This document shows positions 14,779 through 43,080 of a stretch of 64,000 bases of DNA, one piece after another (within the stretch, counting starts at the first letter, position 1; each line of letters opens with the position of its first letter). The notes beneath the pieces were generated by a model, which saw only the letters and a program-made list of their open reading frames with translations, did not search any database and had not been told where the DNA came from. A program made the position numbers and the translations under genes. This stretch comes from Escherichia coli (GTDB lineage: Bacteria; Pseudomonadota; Gammaproteobacteria; Enterobacterales; Enterobacteriaceae), in the NCBI RefSeq assembly GCF_030013595.1, contig NZ_CP122768.1; one strand, 5' to 3'.

Positions 14779-15999
14779 ATGTCTATTTATAAAATCCCGC
14801 TTCCACTGAATATTCTGGAAGCTGCAAAAGAACGTATTACCTGGACACTTAACACCCTACCCCGCGTCTGCGTTTCTTTTTCGGGTGGTAAAGATTCCGG
14901 ATTAATGCTGCATCTGACCGCCGAACTTGCCCGACAAATGGGCAAAAAAATTTGTGTTTTATTTATCGACTGGGAAGCTCAGTTCTCTTGCACCATTAAC
15001 TATGTTCAGTCTCTGCGCGAGTTGTACACCGATGTCATCGAAGAGTTTTACTGGATTGCGCTCCCGCTTACAACGCAAAATTCCCTATCACAATACCAAC
15101 CCGAATGGCAGTGCTGGGAACCTGATGTCGAATGGGTACGTCAGCCCCCGCAAGATGCGATAACCGATCCTGACTTTTTCTCCTTTTACCAGCCTGGCAT
15201 GACCTTCGAACAATTTGTGCGTGAGTTTGCCGAATGGTTTTCGCAAAAACGTCCGGCGGCGATGATGATCGGCATCCGTGCGGATGAGTCCTACAACCGT
15301 TTTGTCGCCATCGCCAGTTTAAATAAACAACGTTTTGCCGATGATAAGCCCTGGACTACTGCCGCACCAGGCGGTCATAGCTGGTACATTTACCCCATCT
15401 ACGACTGGAAAGTCGCTGATATCTGGACCTGGTATGCTAGCCATCAACGCCTCTGTAACCCACTGTATAATATAATGTATCAGGCAGGCGTTCCTCTACG
15501 TCATATGCGAATTTGCGAACCTTTTGGTCCGGAACAACGGCAAGGATTATGGCTCTATCACGTTATCGAACCGGATCGCTGGGCTGCTATGTGCGCACGA
15601 GTCAGCGGGGTAAAAAGTGGCGGCATTTACGCCGGACATGACAACCATTTTTATGGTCATCGGAAAATCCTCAAGCCCGAACATTTAGACTGGCAGGAGT
15701 ATGCATTATTGCTACTCAACAGCATGCCGGAGAAAACAGCTGAGCATTATCGCAATAAAATCGCCATTTATTTGCACTGGTATCAGAAAAAAGGCATCGA
15801 GGTTCCACAAACCCAGCAAGGGGACATTGGCGCGAAAGATATCCCCTCCTGGCGGCGAATATGCAAAGTTTTACTCAATAACGATTACTGGTGTCGGGCA
15901 TTATCATTTAGCCCGACCAAAGCGAAGAACTATCAGCGTTATAACGAACGAATAAAAGGAAAACGTCAGGAATGGGGGATACTATGCAACAACGATTAA
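14779..15999 (+). CDS. ybdN: PAPS-reductase-like PP-loop ATP pyrophosphatase family protein (IbrA-like)
   Basis: 406-aa ORF with the PP-loop motif SFSGGKDS near the N-terminus. Confidence 0.8.
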   Translation: MSIYKIPLPLNILEAAKERITWTLNTLPRVCVSFSGGKDSGLMLHLTAELARQMGKKICVLFIDWEAQFSCTINYVQSLRELYTDVIEEFYWIALPLTTQNSLSQYQPEWQCWEPDVEWVRQPPQDAITDPDFFSFYQPGMTFEQFVREFAEWFSQKRPAAMMIGIRADESYNRFVAIASLNKQRFADDKPWTTAAPGGHSWYIYPIYDWKVADIWTWYASHQRLCNPLYNIMYQAGVPLRHMRICEPFGPEQRQGLWLYHVIEPDRWAAMCARVSGVKSGGIYAGHDNHFYGHRKILKPEHLDWQEYALLLLNSMPEKTAEHYRNKIAIYLHWYQKKGIEVPQTQQGDIGAKDIPSWRRICKVLLNNDYWCRALSFSPTKAKNYQRYNERIKGKRQEWGILCNND

Positions 16000-16600
16000 C
16001 GCAGGATTTAACCCAATTTCTCGCCAGCTTGCCGGAAGACGATCGCATCAAAGCGATTAATGAAATCCGCATGGCGATCCATCAGGTTAGCCCCTTTCGA
16101 GAAGAGCCAGTGGATTGCGTTCTGTGGGTTAAAACAGCCAACTTATGCCTAATGATTACAACCCAAACAACGTGGCACCACCCGAAAAAAAACTGCTGAA
16201 AAAATCCATTGAAATAGATGGTTTTACCCAACCCATTGTGGTCACGCATACGGATAAAAATGCCCTGGAAATCGTGGATGGTTTTCACCGCCATGAAATT
16301 GGTAAAGGCTCATCATCGTTAAAATTACGCTTAAAAGGTTATTTGCCGGTGACCTGTCTGGAAGGTACGCGTAATCAACGCATCGCCGCGACTATTCGTC
16401 ATAACCGCGCTCGTGGACGTCACCAAATCACTGCCATGTCAGAAATCGTCCGTGAACTCAGCCAGTTGGGATGGGACGATCATAAAATTGGCAAAGAGCT
16501 GGGAATGGACAGCGACGAAGTGCTACGCCTGAAGCAAATTAACGGCCTGCAAGAGTTGTTTGCCGACCGTCAATATTCCCGCGCCTGGACGGTTAAATAG
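15972..16600 (+). pseudogene. ybdM: ParB/sulfiredoxin-like protein (IbrB-like), apparently frameshifted
   Basis: Two overlapping ORFs in different frames (15972-16199 and 16145-16600) together span 629 nt, one short of the 630 nt expected for the ~209-aa protein; second part carries a DGFHRH ParB-like motif. Confidence 0.6.
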
Positions 16601-17761
16601 CTAAAGCTGGCGCAGGCGTTCAGCTGCTGCCAGCAACGTCGATTCCTTCTTGGCAAAACAGAGACGAATCAGTTTATGTGGGAAGGGATCGGCGCAAAAC
16701 ACCGATAGCGGAATCGCCGCTACGCCGTGCTCCTGCGTCAGCCACTGGCAAAACTCAACGTCATCCAGGGTAGATACGGCGCTGTAATCCACCAGCAAAA
16801 AGTATGTACCTTCGCACGGTAAAATCTCCAGCCGGCTTTCATTTAAGGCATTCACCAGAATATCGCGCTTCTGGCGATAAAAGTCCGGTAACGCAAGATA
16901 ATGCTCAGGTTCTGCACGTAGCATATCGGCAAGCGCCAGCTGTGCCGGGGTATTCACCGAAAAGGTCAGATACTGATGTACCTTGCGAATTTCGGCACTG
17001 ATGGGCGCTGGCGCAACGCAATAACCCACTTTCCAGCCGGTCATATGATAGGTCTTGCCAAACGATGACACCGCCACCGCCCGCTCACGCAGCTGCGGAT
17101 GCGCCTGCACGCTGGCATGGCCCTGTTGTGAAAAGTTGATGTGCTCGTAAACTTCATCGCTAATGACAAAAATCTCGTGCCCGGCAATTGCCTGCCACAA
17201 AGCGGCGAAATCAGCCTGCTGCCAGACAGTTGCACTGGGGTTATGCGGGGTGTTGAGGATCACCAGTCGGGTGCGCTCGCTTAACAATGCGGCAAATTCC
17301 TGCCAGTCCACGCGAAAATGCGGTGGTTGCAGTGCAATACGTTTCACTATTCCCCCCGAAAGCGCGATGGCGGGCGCGTAACTGTCATAGCTGGGATCAA
17401 AGCAGATCACTTCATCACCATTGCGCACCAATGCGGTAATCGCTGCATATAACGCTTCCGTCGCCCCTGCCGTTACGGTGATATCGCTATCGGCATCCGG
17501 TTGATAGCCATACAGACGTTCCGTTTTCTGAGCAATCGCCTCGCGCAAGGCCTGCACGCCAGTCATAGGCGCGTATTGGTTTGCCCCCTGGGCAACGTGG
17601 TACGCCAGCCGCTCCTGCAAATAGCGCGGACCATCAAAATCAGGAAAGCCTTGCGACAGGTTAATCGCCTGGTGTTGCTGCGCCAGCGCGCTCATCTGGG
17701 TGAAAATAGTGGTGCCAAGTTGTGGAAGTTTGCTTTGTGGAATCAGAGGGTTATTTGTCAT
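16601..17761 (-). CDS. ybdL: PLP-dependent methionine aminotransferase
   Basis: 386-aa ORF MTNNPLIPQSKLPQLGTTIF...; class I/II aminotransferase. Confidence 0.85.
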   Translation of the reverse strand: MTNNPLIPQSKLPQLGTTIFTQMSALAQQHQAINLSQGFPDFDGPRYLQERLAYHVAQGANQYAPMTGVQALREAIAQKTERLYGYQPDADSDITVTAGATEALYAAITALVRNGDEVICFDPSYDSYAPAIALSGGIVKRIALQPPHFRVDWQEFAALLSERTRLVILNTPHNPSATVWQQADFAALWQAIAGHEIFVISDEVYEHINFSQQGHASVQAHPQLRERAVAVSSFGKTYHMTGWKVGYCVAPAPISAEIRKVHQYLTFSVNTPAQLALADMLRAEPEHYLALPDFYRQKRDILVNALNESRLEILPCEGTYFLLVDYSAVSTLDDVEFCQWLTQEHGVAAIPLSVFCADPFPHKLIRLCFAKKESTLLAAAERLRQL

Positions 17762-17869
17762 TTTTATTGTACCTGACGAAGTTGCGTGTTGAAGGCACTA
17801 TAACACGATGCTAGTATTTGGCAATCAAGACGTTTAGATGTCTAAATAAAACAATAAGGACAACACAAC

Positions 17870-18958
17870 ATGCCTCACAATCCTATCCGCGTGGTCGTCG
17901 GCCCGGCTAACTACTTTTCACATCCAGGAAGTTTCAATCACCTGCACGATTTTTTCACTGATGAACAACTTTCTCGCGCGGTGTGGATCTACGGCGAACG
18001 CGCCATTGCTGCGGCGCAAACAAAACTTCCGCCAGCGTTTGAACTGCCAGGGGCAAAGCATATTTTGTTTCGCGGCCATTGCAGCGAAAGCGATGTACAA
18101 CAACTGGCGGCTGAGTCCGGTGACGATCGCAGCGTGGTGATTGGCGTCGGCGGCGGCGCACTGCTCGACACCGCGAAAGCCCTCGCCCGCCGTCTCGGTC
18201 TGCCGTTTGTTGCCGTTCCGACGATCGCCGCCACCTGCGCCGCCTGGACACCGCTCTCCGTCTGGTATAACGATGCCGGACAGGCGCTGCATTATGAGAT
18301 TTTCGACGACGCCAATTTTATGGTGCTGGTGGAACCGGAGATTATCCTCAATGCGCCGCAAGAATATCTGCTGGCGGGGATCGGTGACACGCTGGCGAAA
18401 TGGTATGAAGCGGTGGTGCTGGCTCCGCAACCAGAAACGTTGCCGCTAACCGTGCGGCTAGGGATCAATAATGCGCAGGCTATTCGCGACGTCTTGTTAA
18501 ACAGTAGCGAACAGGCGCTGAGCGATCAGCAAAATCACCAGTTAACGCAATCATTTTGCGATGTGGTGGATGCGATTATCGCCGGAGGTGGAATGGTCGG
18601 TGGTCTGGGCGATCGTTTTACGCGTGTGGCGGCGGCCCATGCCGTGCATAACGGTCTAACCGTGCTGCCGCAAACCGAGAAGTTTCTTCACGGCACCAAA
18701 GTCGCCTACGGAATTCTGGTGCAAAGCGCCTTGCTGGGTCAGGATGATGTGCTGGCGCAATTAACTGGAGCGTATCAGCGTTTTCATCTGCCGACTACGC
18801 TGGCGGAGCTGGAAGTGGATATCAATAATCAGGCGGAGATCGACAAAGTGATTGCCCACACCTTGCGTCCGGTGGAATCCATTCATTACCTGCCGGTCAC
18901 GCTGACACCGGATACGTTGCGTGCAGCGTTCGAAAAAGTGGAATCGTTTAAAGCCTGA
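17870..18958 (+). CDS. hcxA: Glycerol-dehydrogenase-like hydroxycarboxylate dehydrogenase
   Basis: 362-aa ORF with iron-containing ADH/GldA-like glycine-rich stretch (VVIGVGGGALLDTAK); ybdH position. Confidence 0.8.
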   Translation: MPHNPIRVVVGPANYFSHPGSFNHLHDFFTDEQLSRAVWIYGERAIAAAQTKLPPAFELPGAKHILFRGHCSESDVQQLAAESGDDRSVVIGVGGGALLDTAKALARRLGLPFVAVPTIAATCAAWTPLSVWYNDAGQALHYEIFDDANFMVLVEPEIILNAPQEYLLAGIGDTLAKWYEAVVLAPQPETLPLTVRLGINNAQAIRDVLLNSSEQALSDQQNHQLTQSFCDVVDAIIAGGGMVGGLGDRFTRVAAAHAVHNGLTVLPQTEKFLHGTKVAYGILVQSALLGQDDVLAQLTGAYQRFHLPTTLAELEVDINNQAEIDKVIAHTLRPVESIHYLPVTLTPDTLRAAFEKVESFKA

Positions 18959-18967
18959 CGTACACAT

Positions 18968-19165
18968 TTAGCAGCAGCGCGCGCCGCCTTTTCCACCGTA
19001 GCGCGCGTCCTGCCGCTCACGGAAAAACTCTTCGTAGGTCATCGGCGTTTGATCGGGATGGTTAACCCGCATATGTTCGACATAGTTGTCGTAATCAGGC
19101 ATACCAATCATCAGTTTCGCCGCCTGACCTAAATATTTTCCGGCTTTTGCCAGTGAATCAAACAT
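18968..19165 (-). CDS. ybdD: Small DUF466 protein, co-transcribed with cstA
   Basis: 65-aa ORF immediately downstream of cstA on the same strand. Confidence 0.8.
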
Positions 19166-19277
19166 CTAAACCTCCGGTAATACAAATGCCCTCCTGAATT
19201 AAGAGGGCTTAATTGCTATCAACACGCTCGGGCTGAGAGTAAGGGGAACGCTCAGCACATCCCCCCTCACTCTGACT

Positions 19278-21383
19278 TTAGTGCGCGCCTTTCGCCTGCG
19301 CCACGATCTCCTCGACATTTTCCGGCATCGGCTCATACGGCGTTTCTTTCGCCGTTGGCTTCGGCTCTTTCAATGCCGCCAGTGCCGTCTTAATCGAGAA
19401 CAGTGCCAGAACCACCACGACCACCATAAAGAAGATGGTTAACCCGGCATCAAGACGGTTGTTGAACACCAGTTGCGCCAGTTGTGACTCAGTATACTGC
19501 GATGGAATATTGCCGCTGTCGATCATTGCCTGGAACTTGTTAGCAATCGCCAGGAAGCCGACTTTCGCATCCGGGCTAAACGCTTTCTGCCAGCCTGCGG
19601 TCAGGGTACAAATCAGCAGCCAGGCCGTTGGTACCAGCGCCACCCAGGCGTAACGTTGACGTTTCATTTTGAACAGCACCACAGCACAGAGCATCAGCGC
19701 CATCCCTGCCAGCATCTGGTTGGCAATACCAAACAGCGGCCACAGAGTGTTAATACCGCCCAGCGGATCGACCACCCCCTGATGCAGGAAGTAGCCCCAC
19801 GCCAGTACGCACAGCGCCGTTGCCAGCAGGTTAGCAGGCAGTGAATCGGTCCGTTTCAGGCCCGGAGACACCACGCCCAGCAGATCCTGCAACATAAAGC
19901 GCGCAGCACGCGTACCCGCATCCACCGCCGTCAGAATAAACAGTGCTTCAAACAGAATGGCGAAGTGATACCAGAACGCCACATCCATCATGCCGCCCAG
20001 CGCGCCGTGCAGAATGTAGGCCATCCCCACCGCCAGCGTCGGCGCACCGCCCGCACGGGAAATGATCGACTGTTCACCCACTTCGCTGGCAATCTGGTTG
20101 AGCGTATCTGGTGTAATGCTAAATCCCCAGCTACTCACCACTTGCGCTGCAGAAGCGACCACATCCGCCGTACCTGCCGGAGCCAGCACCGCCATCGGGC
20201 TGTTCATAGCGAAGTACACACCCGGATCGATGATACAGGCGGAAACCAGCGCCATAATCGCTACGAAGGATTCCATTAACATCCCGCCGTAGCCGATAAA
20301 ACACGCCTGCCCTTCGTTCGCCAGCATCTTCGGCGTGGTGCCGGAAGAGATCAGCGCATGGAAGCCAGACACCGCGCCACAGGCGATGGTGATAAACAGG
20401 AACGGGAACAGGTTACCGGTCCATACCGGGCCAGTACCATCAACAAATTTGGTCAGCGCAGGCATGGTCAGCGTCGGGCGCATAATCAAAATGCCTACCG
20501 CCAGACCGACGATAGTCCCGATTTTCAGGAAGGTAGAGAGGTAGTCACGCGGAGCCAGCAGCAGCCACACCGGCAGCACCGCCGCCACAAAACCGTAACC
20601 CACCAGCATCCAGGTCAGCTGCACGCCGGTAAAGTCAAAGTACGGTGCCCAGGTCGGGCTTTCTGCCACCCAGCCGCCAGAGATAATGGCGAAAATCAGG
20701 AACACCAGGCCGATGACCGACACTTCGCCAATACGCCCCGGACGCAGATAGCGCAGATAGATCCCCATAAACAGCGCCAGCGGAATAGTGAACGCAACGG
20801 TATACGTTCCCCACGGGCTATGAGTCAGGGCTTTCACCACGATCATCGCCAGCACGGCAAGGATAATGACCATGATCATAAAGCAGGCCACCAGCGCAAT
20901 CACCCCGGCGGTTGGCCCCATCTCTTCTTTGACCAACTCACCCAGCGAGCGACCATCGCGGCGCGTAGAAACAAACAGCATCATGAAATCCTGCACCGCA
21001 CCGGCGAGAACCACCCCAGCGAGCAGCCAGATCATCCCAGGCAGGTAACCCATTTGCGCCGCCAGTACCGGCCCAACCAACGGACCTGCTCCGGCAATGG
21101 CCGCAAAATGGTGACCGAACAGCACTTTTTTGTCCGTCGGCACATAGTCCAGCCCGTCGTTATGGCGCACCGCTGGCGTCATACGCGTCGGGTCAACCGC
21201 CAGCACATTTTTGGCGATATACAGCCCATAAAAACGGTAAGCGATCAGATAGATACAGACCGACGCCACCACAATCCACAGCGCGTTGATCTGTTCCCCA
21301 CGATTTAAAGCAATGTATCCCAGAGCAAATGCTCCCATTACAGAGAGCACTGTCCAGACGAGGTATTTCCCTGATTTGTTCAT
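19278..21383 (-). CDS. cstA: Carbon starvation protein A (peptide/pyruvate transporter)
   Basis: 701-aa polytopic membrane ORF MNKSGKYLVWTVLSVMGAFALGY... Confidence 0.9.
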   Translation of the reverse strand: MNKSGKYLVWTVLSVMGAFALGYIALNRGEQINALWIVVASVCIYLIAYRFYGLYIAKNVLAVDPTRMTPAVRHNDGLDYVPTDKKVLFGHHFAAIAGAGPLVGPVLAAQMGYLPGMIWLLAGVVLAGAVQDFMMLFVSTRRDGRSLGELVKEEMGPTAGVIALVACFMIMVIILAVLAMIVVKALTHSPWGTYTVAFTIPLALFMGIYLRYLRPGRIGEVSVIGLVFLIFAIISGGWVAESPTWAPYFDFTGVQLTWMLVGYGFVAAVLPVWLLLAPRDYLSTFLKIGTIVGLAVGILIMRPTLTMPALTKFVDGTGPVWTGNLFPFLFITIACGAVSGFHALISSGTTPKMLANEGQACFIGYGGMLMESFVAIMALVSACIIDPGVYFAMNSPMAVLAPAGTADVVASAAQVVSSWGFSITPDTLNQIASEVGEQSIISRAGGAPTLAVGMAYILHGALGGMMDVAFWYHFAILFEALFILTAVDAGTRAARFMLQDLLGVVSPGLKRTDSLPANLLATALCVLAWGYFLHQGVVDPLGGINTLWPLFGIANQMLAGMALMLCAVVLFKMKRQRYAWVALVPTAWLLICTLTAGWQKAFSPDAKVGFLAIANKFQAMIDSGNIPSQYTESQLAQLVFNNRLDAGLTIFFMVVVVVLALFSIKTALAALKEPKPTAKETPYEPMPENVEEIVAQAKGAH

Positions 21384-30895: not shown

Positions 30896-31707
30896 CCGAA
30901 TCAGTAGCCCGTTTGCGTGGCGAACAGTTAACCCTCGGATATGGCAAATATACCGTTGCGGAAAATCTGACTGTAGAAATACCTGATGGTCACTTCACGG
31001 CAATTATCGGGCCAAATGGCTGCGGTAAATCCACGTTACTGCGTACCTTAAGCCGCCTGATGACGCCTGCTCACGGGCATGTCTGGCTGGATGGTGAGCA
31101 CATTCAACATTACGCCAGTAAAGAGGTTGCACGCCGGATTGGCCTGTTGGCGCAAAATGCCACCACGCCGGGCGATATCACCGTGCAGGAGCTGGTGGCG
31201 CGTGGACGTTACCCACATCAACCGCTGTTTACCCGCTGGCGGAAAGAAGATGAAGAGGCAGTCACAAAAGCGATGCAGGCCACGGGAATAACTCATCTGG
31301 CAGATCAAAGCGTGGATACCCTTTCTGGCGGACAACGCCAGCGAGCGTGGATCGCGATGGTGCTGGCCCAGGAAACGGCAATTATGCTGCTCGACGAACC
31401 CACGACCTGGCTGGATATCAGTCATCAGATTGATCTACTGGAACTGCTAAGCGAACTGAACCGCGAGAAAGGCTATACCCTGGCGGCAGTGCTGCACGAT
31501 CTTAATCAGGCCTGTCGTTACGCCAGTCATTTGATTGCATTGCGGGAAGGGAAAATTGTTGCTCAGGGAGCGCCGAAGGAGATTGTCACTGCTGAATTGA
31601 TCGAGCGCATTTATGGTCTGCGCTGCATGATTATTGACGATCCGGTAGCCGGAACGCCGCTTGTGGTGCCGCTCGGACGAACGGCACCTTCAACTGCCAA
31701 GATTTAA
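30892..31707 (+). CDS. fepC: Ferric enterobactin ABC transporter ATPase
   Basis: ORF 30751-31707; start at MTESVARLRGEQLTLGY... gives 271 aa; Walker A GPNGCGKST; ATGA overlap with fepG. Confidence 0.9.
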   Translation: MTESVARLRGEQLTLGYGKYTVAENLTVEIPDGHFTAIIGPNGCGKSTLLRTLSRLMTPAHGHVWLDGEHIQHYASKEVARRIGLLAQNATTPGDITVQELVARGRYPHQPLFTRWRKEDEEAVTKAMQATGITHLADQSVDTLSGGQRQRAWIAMVLAQETAIMLLDEPTTWLDISHQIDLLELLSELNREKGYTLAAVLHDLNQACRYASHLIALREGKIVAQGAPKEIVTAELIERIYGLRCMIIDDPVAGTPLVVPLGRTAPSTAKI

Positions 31708-41742: not shown

Positions 41743-43080
41743 CATAAGCGCTAACTTAAGGGTTGTGGTATTACGCCTGATATGATTTAACGTGCCGATG
41801 AATTACTCTCACGATAACTGGTCAGCAATTCTGGCCCATATTGGTAAGCCCGAAGAACTGGATACTTCGGCACGTAATGCCGGGGCTCTAACCCGCCGCC
41901 GCGAAATTCGTGATGCTGCAACTCTGCTACGTCTGGGGCTGGCTTACGGCCCCGGGGGGATGTCATTACGTGAAGTCACTGCATGGGCTCAGCTCCATGA
42001 CGTTGCAACATTATCTGACGTGGCTCTCCTGAAGCGGCTGCGGAATGCCGCCGACTGGTTTGGCATACTTGCCGCACAAACACTTGCTGTACGCGCCGCA
42101 GTTACGGGTTGTACAAGCGGAAAGAGATTGCGTCTTGTCGATGGAACAGCAATCAGTGCGCCCGGGGGCGGCAGCGCTGAATGGCGACTACATATGGGAT
42201 ATGATCCTCATACCTGTCAGTTCACTGATTTTGAGCTAACCGACAGCAGAGACGCTGAACGGCTGGACCGATTTGCGCAAACGGCAGACGAGATACGCAT
42301 TGCTGACCGGGGATTCGGTTCGCGTCCCGAATGTATCCGCTCACTTGCTTTTGGAGAAGCTGATTATATCGTCCGGGTTCACTGGCGAGGATTGCGCTGG
42401 TTAACTGCAGAAGGAATGCGCTTTGACATGATGGGTTTTCTGCGCGGGCTGGATTGCGGTAAGAACGGTGAAACCACTGTAATGATAGGCAATTCAGGTA
42501 ATAAAAAAGCCGGAGCTCCCTTTCCGGCACGTCTCATTGCCGTATCACTTCCTCCCGAAAAAGCATTAATCAGTAAAACCCGACTGCTCAGCGAGAATCG
42601 TCGAAAAGGACGAGTAGTTCAGGCGGAAACGCTGGAAGCAGCGGGCCATGTGCTATTGCTAACATCATTACCGGAAGATGAATATTCAGCAGAGCAAGTG
42701 GCTGATTGTTACCGTCTGCGATGGCAAATTGAACTGGCTTTTAAGCGGCTCAAAAGTTTGCTGCACCTGGATGCTTTGCGTGCAAAGGAACCTGAACTCG
42801 CGAAAGCGTGGATATTTGCTAATCTACTCGCCGCATTTTTAATTGACGACATAATCCAGCCATCGCTGGATTTCCCCCCAGAAGTGCCGGATCCGAAAAG
42901 AAGAACTAACTCGTTGTGGAGAATAACAAAAATGGTCATCTGGAGCTTACAGGTGGCCATTCGTGGGACAGTATCCCTGACAGCCTACAAAACGCAATTG
43001 AAGAACGCGAGGCATCGTCTTAACGAGGCACCGAGGCGTCGCATTCTTCAGATGGTTCAACCCTTAAGTTAGCGCTTATG
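41743..43080 (+). mobile_element. IS186 insertion sequence (IS4 family), complete, 1338 bp
   Basis: 23-bp terminal inverted repeats cataagcgctaacttaagggttg (41743-41765) and caacccttaagttagcgcttatg (43058-43080); identical 10-bp direct repeats ggattactcc at 41733-41742 and 43081-43090. Confidence 0.9.
41960..43072 (+). CDS. insL: IS186 transposase (DDE)
   Basis: ORF 41792-43072; start placed at MSLREVTAWAQL... to give the ~370 aa I recall for InsL; start uncertain. Confidence 0.75.
   Translation: MSLREVTAWAQLHDVATLSDVALLKRLRNAADWFGILAAQTLAVRAAVTGCTSGKRLRLVDGTAISAPGGGSAEWRLHMGYDPHTCQFTDFELTDSRDAERLDRFAQTADEIRIADRGFGSRPECIRSLAFGEADYIVRVHWRGLRWLTAEGMRFDMMGFLRGLDCGKNGETTVMIGNSGNKKAGAPFPARLIAVSLPPEKALISKTRLLSENRRKGRVVQAETLEAAGHVLLLTSLPEDEYSAEQVADCYRLRWQIELAFKRLKSLLHLDALRAKEPELAKAWIFANLLAAFLIDDIIQPSLDFPPEVPDPKRRTNSLWRITKMVIWSLQVAIRGTVSLTAYKTQLKNARHRLNEAPRRRILQMVQPLS

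Follow-up and report, generated by a model that had tools for sequence, protein, structure and literature searches.

Compact convergent gene ends at ybdM/ybdL and hcxA/ybdD in Escherichia coli and the overlap of their transcripts

Gene order and stop codons at the two junctions

The window analysed here, a stretch of 64,000 nucleotides of Escherichia coli DNA, contains two pairs of adjacent protein-coding genes that lie tail to tail on opposite strands, which is the geometry of a convergent excludon. In the regional order, ybdO (citR), ybdN and ybdM run towards ybdL, and hcxA runs towards ybdD and cstA. The first pair consists of ybdM (15972..16600, plus strand), a gene for a ParB-like/IbrB-like protein, and ybdL (16601..17761, minus strand), which encodes a methionine aminotransferase, both assigned from the ORF ends, the RefSeq annotation and Pfam. 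The terminal TAG of ybdM (16598-16600), the native stop of its C-terminal frame, is immediately followed by the TAG of ybdL (16601-16603, CTA on the plus strand), the junction reading ...ACG GTT AAA TAG/CTA AAG CTG... with 0 bases between the stops, which together form the palindrome TAGCTA. In the second pair, hcxA (formerly ybdH; 17870..18958, plus strand), the gene of a hydroxycarboxylate dehydrogenase of the Fe-ADH family, ends with ...AAA GCC TGA (stop at 18956-18958) and is separated by the 9-bp spacer CGTACACAT (18959..18967) from the TTA that represents, on the plus strand, the TAA stop (18968-18970) of ybdD (18968..19165, minus strand). The latter encodes a 65-aa protein of the YbdD/YjiX family (PF04328), and YbdD and CstA are both needed for pyruvate uptake.

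The abutting stops of ybdM and ybdL and the 9-bp gap between hcxA and ybdD, both put forward in the original prediction, were confirmed by direct reading of the sequence, by the ends in the ORF list (16600/16601 and 18958/18968) and by RefSeq annotation, since the gene ends match those of K-12 MG1655 (ybdL 634746 and ybdM 634747; ybdD 632379 and hcxA 632389) and those annotated in HCP5S3_I2, a 99.9%-identical strain, are as in the window. The protein identities were confirmed with Pfam and the matches of YbdL and YbdD extend to the ends of the profiles, implying that neither C-terminus is an artefactual extension.

The ybdM copy of the window carries a 1-bp deletion, with A4 instead of A5 at 16131-16134, and its native frame closes early at a stop in 16197-16199; consequently, the TAG at 16598 is the stop of a downstream 151-codon fragment only. 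This frameshift is shared by 0 of 4987 matching genomes, whereby a lineage trait was rejected, and a homopolymer error or a private mutation is its probable origin from the sequence comparison. Such a flaw lends some weight to the idea that a mis-called stop or an assembly error lies behind the tight spacing as well. Nevertheless, K-12 and thousands of independent assemblies have identical junction sequences, in-frame stop codons fix the ORF ends, YbdL and YbdD align with their Pfam profiles up to the C-terminal end, and other genera show the zero gap as well, with different stop codons. An artefact was therefore rejected on the population and cross-genus comparisons, its probability being close to nil.

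Frequency and conservation of the layout

To place both junctions among other convergent ends, an annotated E. coli sample of 250 kb was used, in which 16 of the 39 convergent CDS pairs (41%) have a gap of 10 bp or less or overlap, five of them by 4 bp, and a single pair has a gap of exactly 0. The same window holds two further tight pairs, fepB/entS (3 bp) and fepC/fepE (4-bp overlap), and the same geometry is seen with 4-bp overlaps at zapC/ycbX, yccX/tusE, yfeH/ypeB and yrbL/mtgA, the gap of 0 at ybdL/ybdM being one value among many. The arrangement is neither unusual nor new and does not go beyond what chance or custom gives.

The two junctions are collinear in 5313 and 5419, respectively, of 5426 complete E. 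coli genomes (about 98-99.9%). Among other ybdM-carrying loci, from at least 11 genera, the zero gap between ybdL and ybdM is kept in 45 of 47 despite stop-codon turnover (47 of 49 loci when K-12 and HCP5S3_I2 are counted), a degree of sequence conservation that hints at some constraint not required by a purely neutral reading. Between hcxA and ybdD, a gap of 8-9 bp is confined to Escherichia, compared with 35 bp in Salmonella, 11-191 bp in Citrobacter, where REP elements often occupy it, and 859 bp in Pseudocitrobacter.

Termination signals and transcript overlap

No canonical intrinsic terminator, made of a hairpin and a U-tract, was found after any of the four stops with a consensus scan or with our own lenient scan for hairpins and U-tracts. 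The consensus scan for terminators and promoters (threshold of at least 5 T in 8) returned nothing at the junctions, and its terminator-like sites numbered 7 against 9.5 expected from shuffles; the lenient scan gave stable hairpins but only weak U-tracts, and a canonical intrinsic terminator was rejected on this basis. In an Rfam scan of 13-22 kb (E <= 1), a chance sub-threshold plastid match was the only hit.

Overlap of the transcripts of both pairs is already documented. ybdL-ybdM and ybdD-hcxA both appear in Table 1 of the ExcludonFinder study (Sanmartin et al., NAR 2025, PMC12288877) among the 165 convergent excludons of MG1655, which are adjacent genes on opposite strands, as here, defined by strand-specific RNA-seq coverage overlapping in at least 50% of 58 samples. 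Furthermore, two Rho termination regions were published by Adams et al. (2021, eLife, PMC7815308, Supplementary file 2). One, at K-12 position 632836(+) (Rho score 8.4, p = 1.3e-17), is antisense to ybdH and lies some 457 nt downstream of the ybdD stop; the other, at 631994(-) (Rho score 4.5, p = 7.9e-6), is antisense to cstA and lies some 395 nt downstream of the hcxA stop. These regions are bicyclomycin-sensitive and located only to within a few hundred nt (PMC7815308), and they could partly represent antisense transcripts starting inside the genes and not read-through.

The sequence composition past the ybdD and hcxA stops is that expected of a Rho terminator, with untranslated C-rich and G-poor RNA upstream of the termination zone, the antisense strand not being translated in frame. 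In the ybdD sense, a C-rich, G-poor stretch (18542..18642, minus strand, C/G 2.0-2.3) lies 325-425 nt past the ybdD stop, inside hcxA antisense and just upstream of about 18511, the window equivalent of K-12 632836(+), and past the hcxA stop C/G reaches 2.2 at +300..+375. The other pair is less enriched, with a ratio of at most 1.65 in the first 500 nt after the ybdM stop (1.86 at +800) and of 1.9 at +75 after the ybdL stop. The ybdL/ybdM pair is absent, by gene name and by coordinate, from the tables of Adams et al. (PMC7815308), probably owing to low expression; no Term-seq 3' end is reported in that study at either junction, and the supplements of Yan 2018 and TERMITe 2025 do not mention 3' ends of ybdL/ybdM.

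Taken together, the lack of a canonical terminator after the four stops, the listing of both pairs as excludons and the Rho regions past ybdD and hcxA support the view that the stops lie too close together for an intergenic terminator and that the transcripts enter the opposite gene. The further proposal that 3' UTRs are embedded in the coding sequence of the neighbour holds for the hcxA/ybdD pair, as judged from the Rho regions of Adams et al. (PMC7815308). Signals for termination or for 3' ends can nonetheless sit in coding sequence, whereby the overlap of the mature RNAs could be short.

Hairpins at the ends of ybdL and ybdD

A GC-rich hairpin lies within the last 10 codons of ybdL (16606..16634, both strands, dG about -16 to -19 kcal/mol) and has directly 3' of it, in the ybdL sense, UUUAGCUAUUUAA, which spans both stops and the terminal Lys codon of ybdM. 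As an intrinsic terminator the hairpin falls below the threshold of a hand-computed score of the d'Aubenton-Carafa type, and its stability does not exceed that predicted from composition (z = -0.7 and -1.1); it may be a stem-loop that forms or protects the 3' end. A second ybdL-sense hairpin (16538..16574, minus strand, dG -16.1), 27-63 nt past the ybdL stop and followed by UUGCUUCAG, is antisense to the ybdM codons ...INGLQELFADRQ... and its helix is present in most ybdM-carrying genera. In the alignment, 92.5% of the cells of its 8-bp core are paired on the ybdL-sense strand versus 72% on the other, and the G-U pairs it contains are specific to the ybdL-sense strand. A very stable hairpin (18971..19013, both strands, dG -21.6 to -28.6), with no U-tract after it, lies within the final 14 codons of ybdD; its arms are two Ala-Arg dipeptides encoded GCGCGC, and it may serve as a protective 3' stem-loop in a transcript terminated by Rho. 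All three are GC-rich stem-loops lacking a run of 7-8 U, their tails being UUUAGCUAU (16606-16634), UUGCUUCAG (16538-16574) and UAAAUGUGU (18971-19013), none of which passes the consensus scan. The junction palindromes of both pairs fold on both strands, as expected of the hairpin of a bidirectional terminator.

Compared with dinucleotide shuffles, the stability of the hairpins is not significant on the sense strands (z = -0.7 to -1.4), and selection for structure was not accepted as shown on these values. RNAalifold with 45 genera-spanning sequences (ybdL end and the +16..+85 region, both strands) gave no conserved consensus structure. With weak shuffle scores and no single aligned structure across genera, a role of the hairpins as protectors of 3' ends is therefore conjectural. 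For the helix at +27..+63, pairing amounts to 74.7% versus 73.5% in column shuffles, with one covarying pair only (CG<->UA), suggesting that conserved codons account for most of the pairing.

Probable Rho termination in the opposite gene and alternative explanations

Both junctions are probably ordinary compact convergent ends, which genome compaction produces by default and at which Rho serves as the terminator, and not a dedicated regulatory device. RNA polymerase leaving each gene would transcribe the antisense strand of the neighbour, since there is no intergenic spacer, and Rho could load on the C-rich stretches of the tail, because this antisense RNA would not be translated, and terminate transcription a few hundred nt in. 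In the case of ybdD and hcxA, termination of this kind has been demonstrated in K-12; for ybdL and ybdM it is inferred. By analogy with the model of Dar & Sorek (2018, NAR, PMC6061677), 3'-5' exonucleases probably trim the long tails back to the stable GC-rich stem-loops with which the coding sequences of ybdL and ybdD end, in which case the overlap would be long during transcription and short in the mature RNAs. The likeness to the Rho-dependent 3' ends with protective stem-loops described by these authors and by Adams et al. (PMC7815308) lies in the Rho regions some 400-460 nt past the ybdD and hcxA stops, in the stretch with C>G upstream of one of them and in the U-tract-less stem-loop that ends ybdD, and also ybdL. 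In contrast to the 3' ends of Dar & Sorek (PMC6061677), the stem-loops are located in the last codons of the genes themselves, and the rut/termination zone lies in opposing coding sequence and not in an intergenic 3' UTR.

The three stem-loops in and next to the terminal codons of ybdL and ybdD might instead be real termination elements, either intrinsic terminators of low strength or hairpins that cause pausing in a collision-driven overlapping bidirectional terminator, in which case the majority of transcripts would finish about 10-65 nt past the stop with minimal overlap. Overlapping bidirectional terminators between convergent genes are reportedly a finding of Ju, Li and Liu in 2019, made by SEnd-seq. 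The junctions resemble those of Wang et al. (2022, bioRxiv 10.1101/2022.10.23.513370; e.g. ynaJ-uspE) in being convergent pairs that lack a canonical U-tract and have a junction palindrome capable of folding on either strand, and the collision model indeed requires a hairpin in the overlap and no U-tract; on the other hand, the published elements are intergenic and efficient mainly in highly expressed pairs, while the palindromes here are coding and the genes weakly expressed, with low counts, a situation in which collision termination is inefficient. The hairpins are strong in absolute terms, ranking in the top 5% (ybdL) and the top 0.2% (ybdD) of the 48-nt windows of the 64-kb window, and overlapping terminators were predicted by TransTermHP for 146 of the 165 convergent excludons (PMC12288877). 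Moreover, the last 48 nt of ybdL are more structured, relative to their own gene, where ybdM abuts (median percentile 0.22 versus 0.42 without ybdM; Mann-Whitney p = 7e-4, not corrected for phylogeny), the sequence UUUAGCUAUUUAA directly follows the ybdL hairpin, and the +27..+63 helix, with its ybdL-sense G-U pairs and the covarying CG<->UA pair, is kept across genera. Against this stand the poor U-tracts, the sub-threshold score of the ybdL hairpin, the weak shuffle and RNAalifold results, the near-shuffle pairing of the named helix and the fact that the two GCGCGC arms at the end of ybdD are simply Ala-Arg codons, as well as the data of Adams et al. (PMC7815308), with no Term-seq 3' end at either junction and bicyclomycin-sensitive read-through hundreds of nt further on for ybdD and hcxA. 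Termination by these stem-loops is consequently unlikely, and a more elaborate version is doubted still more strongly, namely that the abutment of the ybdL and ybdM stops is under selection and the 3'-end signal of ybdL a composite of both coding sequences. The parts of such a composite, as proposed from sequence, may be the hairpin at the ybdL end, the U-rich complement of the ybdM AAA-Lys codon and stop, and the second conserved hairpin antisense to the ybdM codons INGL...DR. This reading builds on the zero gap kept in 45 of the 47 other loci, in contrast to an hcxA/ybdD gap that ranges from 8 to 859 bp.

The overlap could also have been selected for mutually exclusive expression, of ybdL versus ybdNM and of hcxA versus cstA-ybdD, for which the mechanism would be collision of RNA polymerases, cutting of the sense/antisense duplex by RNase III, or both. 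Both pairs belong to the published excludome, in which excludon pairs are more syntenic than other neighbouring pairs (PMC12288877), the ybdL/ybdM zero gap is kept across genera as described above, and hcxA, encoding an enzyme of 2-oxo/hydroxy acids, and cstA-ybdD, for pyruvate import, are plausibly linked in function. In our own sample, however, 13 of the 16 convergent pairs with a gap of 10 bp or less are listed as excludons versus 1 of the 23 wider ones, so that the listing is a near-geometric consequence of a short gap and not evidence of regulation, and validation of double-stranded RNA with p19 was not possible for convergent excludons (PMC12288877). The gap between hcxA and ybdD also varies, with its short form confined to Escherichia. 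As for expression, in ΔcitR ybdN rises 45-fold (log2 5.5) and ybdM, which is overlapped by ybdL read-through, only 6-fold (log2 2.5), a difference in the direction expected of interference, but ybdL is absent from the list of differentially expressed genes (PMC9068703). In ΔyneJ, ybdL rises 12-fold (log2 3.6) and ybdH 6-fold (log2 2.6), and the list is without b0598, b0601 and b0602 (cstA, ybdM and ybdN), the low counts of these genes limiting the statistical power of both tables (PMC9068703). Antisense interference between the partners, offered in the original prediction only as a possibility, is thus unsupported, no reciprocal change being listed in either mutant. The original excludon concept, from Listeria, implies reciprocal regulation, of which these two published perturbations give no sign for the ybd pairs. 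Selection for mutually exclusive expression is rather improbable, somewhat more so than termination by the stem-loops themselves.

Read as ordinary compact ends with Rho termination, the two junctions illustrate a general and already described property of E. coli and matter little by themselves. Many of its convergent genes have no spacer and their transcription is ended by Rho inside the neighbour, hence antisense 3' tails; such tight junctions are not anomalies, and regulation does not follow from an excludon listing. With its deeply conserved zero gap, the ybdL/ybdM pair is a small testable case of whether two coding sequences can share termination signals.

In the hcxA sense, read-through reaches, after crossing all of ybdD antisense, a region (19166..19283, plus strand) made of the spacer between cstA and ybdD and the bases with which the 3' end of cstA begins, position 19283 being approximately the equivalent of K-12 631994(-). 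The spacer carries a hairpin, GCCCTC...GAGGGC (19188..19208, both strands, z = -2.8 and -2.4), which resembles a terminator on the minus strand, with AUUUGUAUUA as its tail, the plus-strand tail UUAAUUGCU being weaker. At the equivalent position, K-12 has a REP element and another palindromic repeat instead.

Convergent gene ends in the window and in E. coli

Direct reading of the sequence gives ...ACG GTT AAA TAG|CTA AAG CTG GCG... at the ybdM/ybdL junction (16598-16603), in which the contiguous stop codons of both genes form the palindrome TAGCTA, and ...AAA GCC TGA CGTACACAT TTA GCA GCA... at the junction of hcxA (formerly ybdH) and ybdD (18956-18970). The ORF listing places the corresponding ends at 16600 (+) and 16601 (-) for the first pair and at 18958 (+) and 18968 (-) for the second, confirming the original observation that the ybdM and ybdL stops abut and that those of hcxA and ybdD are 9 bp apart. 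In both K-12 MG1655 and the closest genome (HCP5S3_I2, 99.9% identity), citR (ybdO)-ybdN-ybdM converges on ybdL and hcxA on ybdD-cstA, with annotated gene ends exactly as in the window (ybdL 634746/ybdM 634747 and ybdD 632379/hcxA 632389 in K-12; the window is the K-12 reverse complement, with window = 651347 - K-12 coordinate across the region). The 3.4-kb stretch was matched in 5,420 of 5,426 complete E. coli genomes, and junction queries of 100 and 105 bases aligned end to end in 5,313 and 5,419 of them respectively, no length change being seen among the matches listed.

Pfam matches extend to profile position 361 of 361 for YbdL (class I/II aminotransferase) and to 61 of 61 for YbdD (PF04328 'Sel_put', putative selenoprotein family), indicating that these C-termini are native and carry no extensions. 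HcxA belongs to the Fe-ADH family, PAPS_reduct and DUF3440 domains were identified in YbdN, and the ParB_N match of YbdM falls just under threshold. The C-terminus of YbdD (18968-19165) reads ...GGARCC.

To see how common such spacing is, all neighbouring CDS pairs in which a + gene is followed by a - gene were taken from the RefSeq annotation of the 50 kb corresponding to the window and of four arbitrary 50-kb K-12 segments. Convergent gaps (in bp, overlaps being negative) were 120, 0, 9, 3, -4, 121 and 80 in the window equivalent; -4, 69, 75, -38, 31, 44, -4 and 114 at 1.00-1.05 Mb; 52, 40, 3, 257, -41, 8, -35 and 116 at 1.80-1.85 Mb; 2, 140, 199, 51, 38, -4, 42, 188 and 239 at 2.50-2.55 Mb; and -14, 117, 7, 155, 185, 47 and -4 at 3.30-3.35 Mb. 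A spacer of 10 bp or less, or an overlap, was thus found in 16/39 pairs (41%), and in 12/32 outside the region of the finding itself; the same window holds a 3-bp gap at fepB/entS (27537/27541), a pair likewise listed among published excludons, and a 4-bp overlap at fepC/fepE (31704-31707). Tight convergent geometry is therefore common in E. coli and not unusual.

Transcript overlap and termination

Published data support the convergent transcript overlap proposed for both pairs. ExcludonFinder, which draws transcript boundaries from strand-specific RNA-seq coverage, reports 165 convergent excludons (opposite-strand gene pairs with overlapping transcripts) in at least 50% of 58 MG1655 samples, and ybdL-ybdM, ybdD-hcxA and entS-fepB are all among them (Sanmartin et al., NAR 2025, PMC12288877). 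Such listing applied to 13/16 of the tight sampled pairs vs 1/23 of the wider ones, suggesting that it is nearly a geometric consequence of a short gap; p19 dsRNA capture could not validate convergent excludons (PMC12288877).

For hcxA/ybdD, a strand-specific check has in effect already been done and agrees with overlap, as DirectRNA-seq with and without bicyclomycin mapped Rho termination to two regions of this locus (Adams et al., eLife 2021, PMC7815308, Supplementary file 2). The one at K-12 632836(+), antisense to ybdH, had upstream/downstream reads of 121/18 untreated and 115/143 with bicyclomycin (Rho score 8.36, p = 1.3e-17) and lies about 457 nt past the ybdD stop (window ~18511, - strand). 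The other, at K-12 631994(-) and antisense to cstA, had reads of 78/10 and 120/69 respectively (Rho score 4.49, p = 7.9e-6) and lies about 395 nt past the hcxA stop (window ~19283, + strand), all of ybdD being crossed antisense first. Beyond the ybdD stop, the C/G ratio climbs to 2.0-2.3 between +325 and +425 nt; beyond that of hcxA, it reaches 2.2 between about +300 and +375. The tables of Adams et al. have no entry for ybdL/ybdM by gene name or by coordinate, and the 3'-end data of Yan 2018 and TERMITe 2025 do not mention this pair. The arrangement and the transcript overlap are already on record and, as far as documented, transcripts end by Rho acting inside the opposing gene.

A consensus scan detected no terminator at the four stops or downstream of them, and terminator-like sites in 13.5-21.6 kb were fewer than expected (7 vs 9.5 in shuffles). 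A more lenient scan found stable hairpins within the terminal codons of both - strand genes: at the ybdL end (16634..16606, -), GCUGGCAGCAGCUGAACGCCUGCGCCAGC with a dG of -15.8 followed by UUUAGCUAUUUAA, spanning both stop codons, and at the ybdD end (19013..18971, -), a hairpin with a dG of -21.6 (-28.6 with flanks) followed by UAAAUGUGU. They rank in the top 5% (ybdL) and top 0.2% (ybdD) among all 48-nt windows of the 64 kb, yet sense-strand hairpins were unremarkable vs dinucleotide shuffles of the same stretch (z = -0.72 and -1.43 respectively) and the ybdD stem consists of two Ala-Arg dipeptides, each encoded GCGCGC, so these hairpins are physically strong without sign of selection. They would suit a hairpin-plus-collision model of bidirectional terminators, a mode of termination reported to be inefficient for weakly expressed pairs (Wang et al. 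2022, bioRxiv 10.1101/2022.10.23.513370).

Conservation of the ybdL/ybdM junction

A YbdL-based scan with one genome per species gave 80 loci, whose gene ends were obtained by tblastn and in-frame extension to the stop codon. ybdM adjoins ybdL in 47 sequences including the window (49 with K-12 and HCP5S3_I2), and in 45 of those 47 the stops abut with no base between them, as in K-12 and HCP5S3_I2. Zero-gap loci span at least 11 genera (Escherichia, Citrobacter, Salmonella, Enterobacter, Kluyvera, Raoultella, a Klebsiella MAG, Lelliottia, Superficieibacter, Pseudocitrobacter and Huaxiibacter); two Citrobacter loci (L015 and L047) carry a 13-nt insertion at the junction. ybdM is missing from the 33 remaining loci, several of which carry a clear terminator 30-60 nt downstream of ybdL. 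Only Escherichia has an hcxA/ybdD gap of 8-9 bp; it measures 35 bp in Salmonella, 859 bp in Pseudocitrobacter and 11-191 bp, often REP-filled, in Citrobacter. Among the 47 sequences, ybdL stops were TAG 25, TGA 13 and TAA 9, and ybdM stops TAA 27, TAG 20 and TGA 0; TAG, generally the least used stop in E. coli, is frequent at both ends (25/47 and 20/47).

Constraint may account for the conservation of the zero gap; alternatively, the gap may persist since it can be widened without protein damage only by an insertion at a single specific phosphodiester bond. RNAalifold found no conserved RNA structure at the ybdL end. The last 48 nt of ybdL were modestly more structured relative to their own gene in loci with ybdM than in those without (median percentile 0.22 vs 0.42; p = 7e-4, phylogeny uncorrected). 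A second helix (16574..16538, - strand, ybdL-sense, 27-63 nt past the ybdL stop; alignment columns 12-48), antisense to the ybdM C-terminal codons INGLQELFADRQ, recurs in most genera. Over all cells, its pairing was 74.7% on the ybdL-sense strand vs 68.7% on the other, and 92.5% vs 72% for the core 8 bp by a tally of per-pair tables; its G-U pairs would become A-C mismatches on the ybdM-sense strand. Its one covarying pair (CG<->UA) joins the third position of an Ile codon to the second position of a Gln/Arg codon, pairing was only marginally above column shuffles (74.7% vs 73.5%) and RNAalifold does not recover it. This helix is a lead rather than a finding, and a sharing of 3'-end signals between the ybdL and ybdM coding sequences is a possibility; together with the deep conservation of the zero gap, it forms the sole, mildly novel thread of this analysis.

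Regulatory consequences

Excludons in the original sense imply mutually exclusive expression. CitR represses ybdNM, and its deletion raises ybdN by log2 5.5 and ybdM by log2 2.5 (ΔcitR; base means 36 and 20; Rodionova et al. 2022, PMC9068703 Table 1), the table of differentially expressed genes being without ybdL (b0600). In ΔyneJ, ybdL (log2 3.6, 12-fold) and ybdH (log2 2.56, 6-fold) are up alongside met/his/cys biosynthesis genes (Supplementary file 2), and b0598 (cstA), b0601 and b0602 are absent from the b-number-ordered sheet. The predicted anticorrelation was thus seen in neither ΔcitR nor ΔyneJ, at low statistical power. That ybdM is induced less strongly than ybdN fits interference from ybdL read-through, and fits polarity, or a fold change diluted by antisense reads, just as well. 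Regulatory interference between partners is unproven; the limited data do not speak for it.

The co-induced ybdL and hcxA (b0600/b0599, 16601-18958) diverge from a 108-bp region (17762-17869) with a promoter-like extended -10 site (TTGCCA-16-TATAGT) at 17824-17797 (-) upstream of ybdL, and the ybdNM operon genes (b0601/b0602; 14779-16600) respond very differently from each other in ΔcitR.

In the window, ybdM (15972-16600) has A4 for A5 at 16131-16134, a 1-bp deletion that leaves ORFs of 75 and 151 codons, the native frame stopping at 16197-16199 and the second ORF restarting at 16145. As 0/4,987 complete E. coli genomes matching the 76-nt stretch share it, it is either a private mutation (pseudogene) or an error in sequencing the homopolymer. 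If real, the ribosome stop at 16197-16199 would leave some 400 nt of the ybdM RNA untranslated, inviting Rho-dependent polarity, and less ybdNM read-through into ybdL would be expected in this strain.

Other features of the window

The cstA-ybdD spacer is polymorphic, with 112 bp here (19166-19277) vs 182 bp in K-12 (632000-632181). In K-12 it contains a REP element (GCCGGATG...CTTATCCGGCCTAC), a second palindromic repeat (CCCCTCGCCCCACCGGGGAGAGGG) and a Term-seq 3' end at 632098 (Adams et al., PMC7815308); in place of these repeats, the window has a terminator-like hairpin, GCCCTC-N9-GAGGGC (19188-19208; z about -2.8). Elsewhere, the type I toxin gene hokE is annotated as overlapping a frameshifted hypothetical pseudogene in the nearest strain (L083, 41755-42143; window ~41754-42142).
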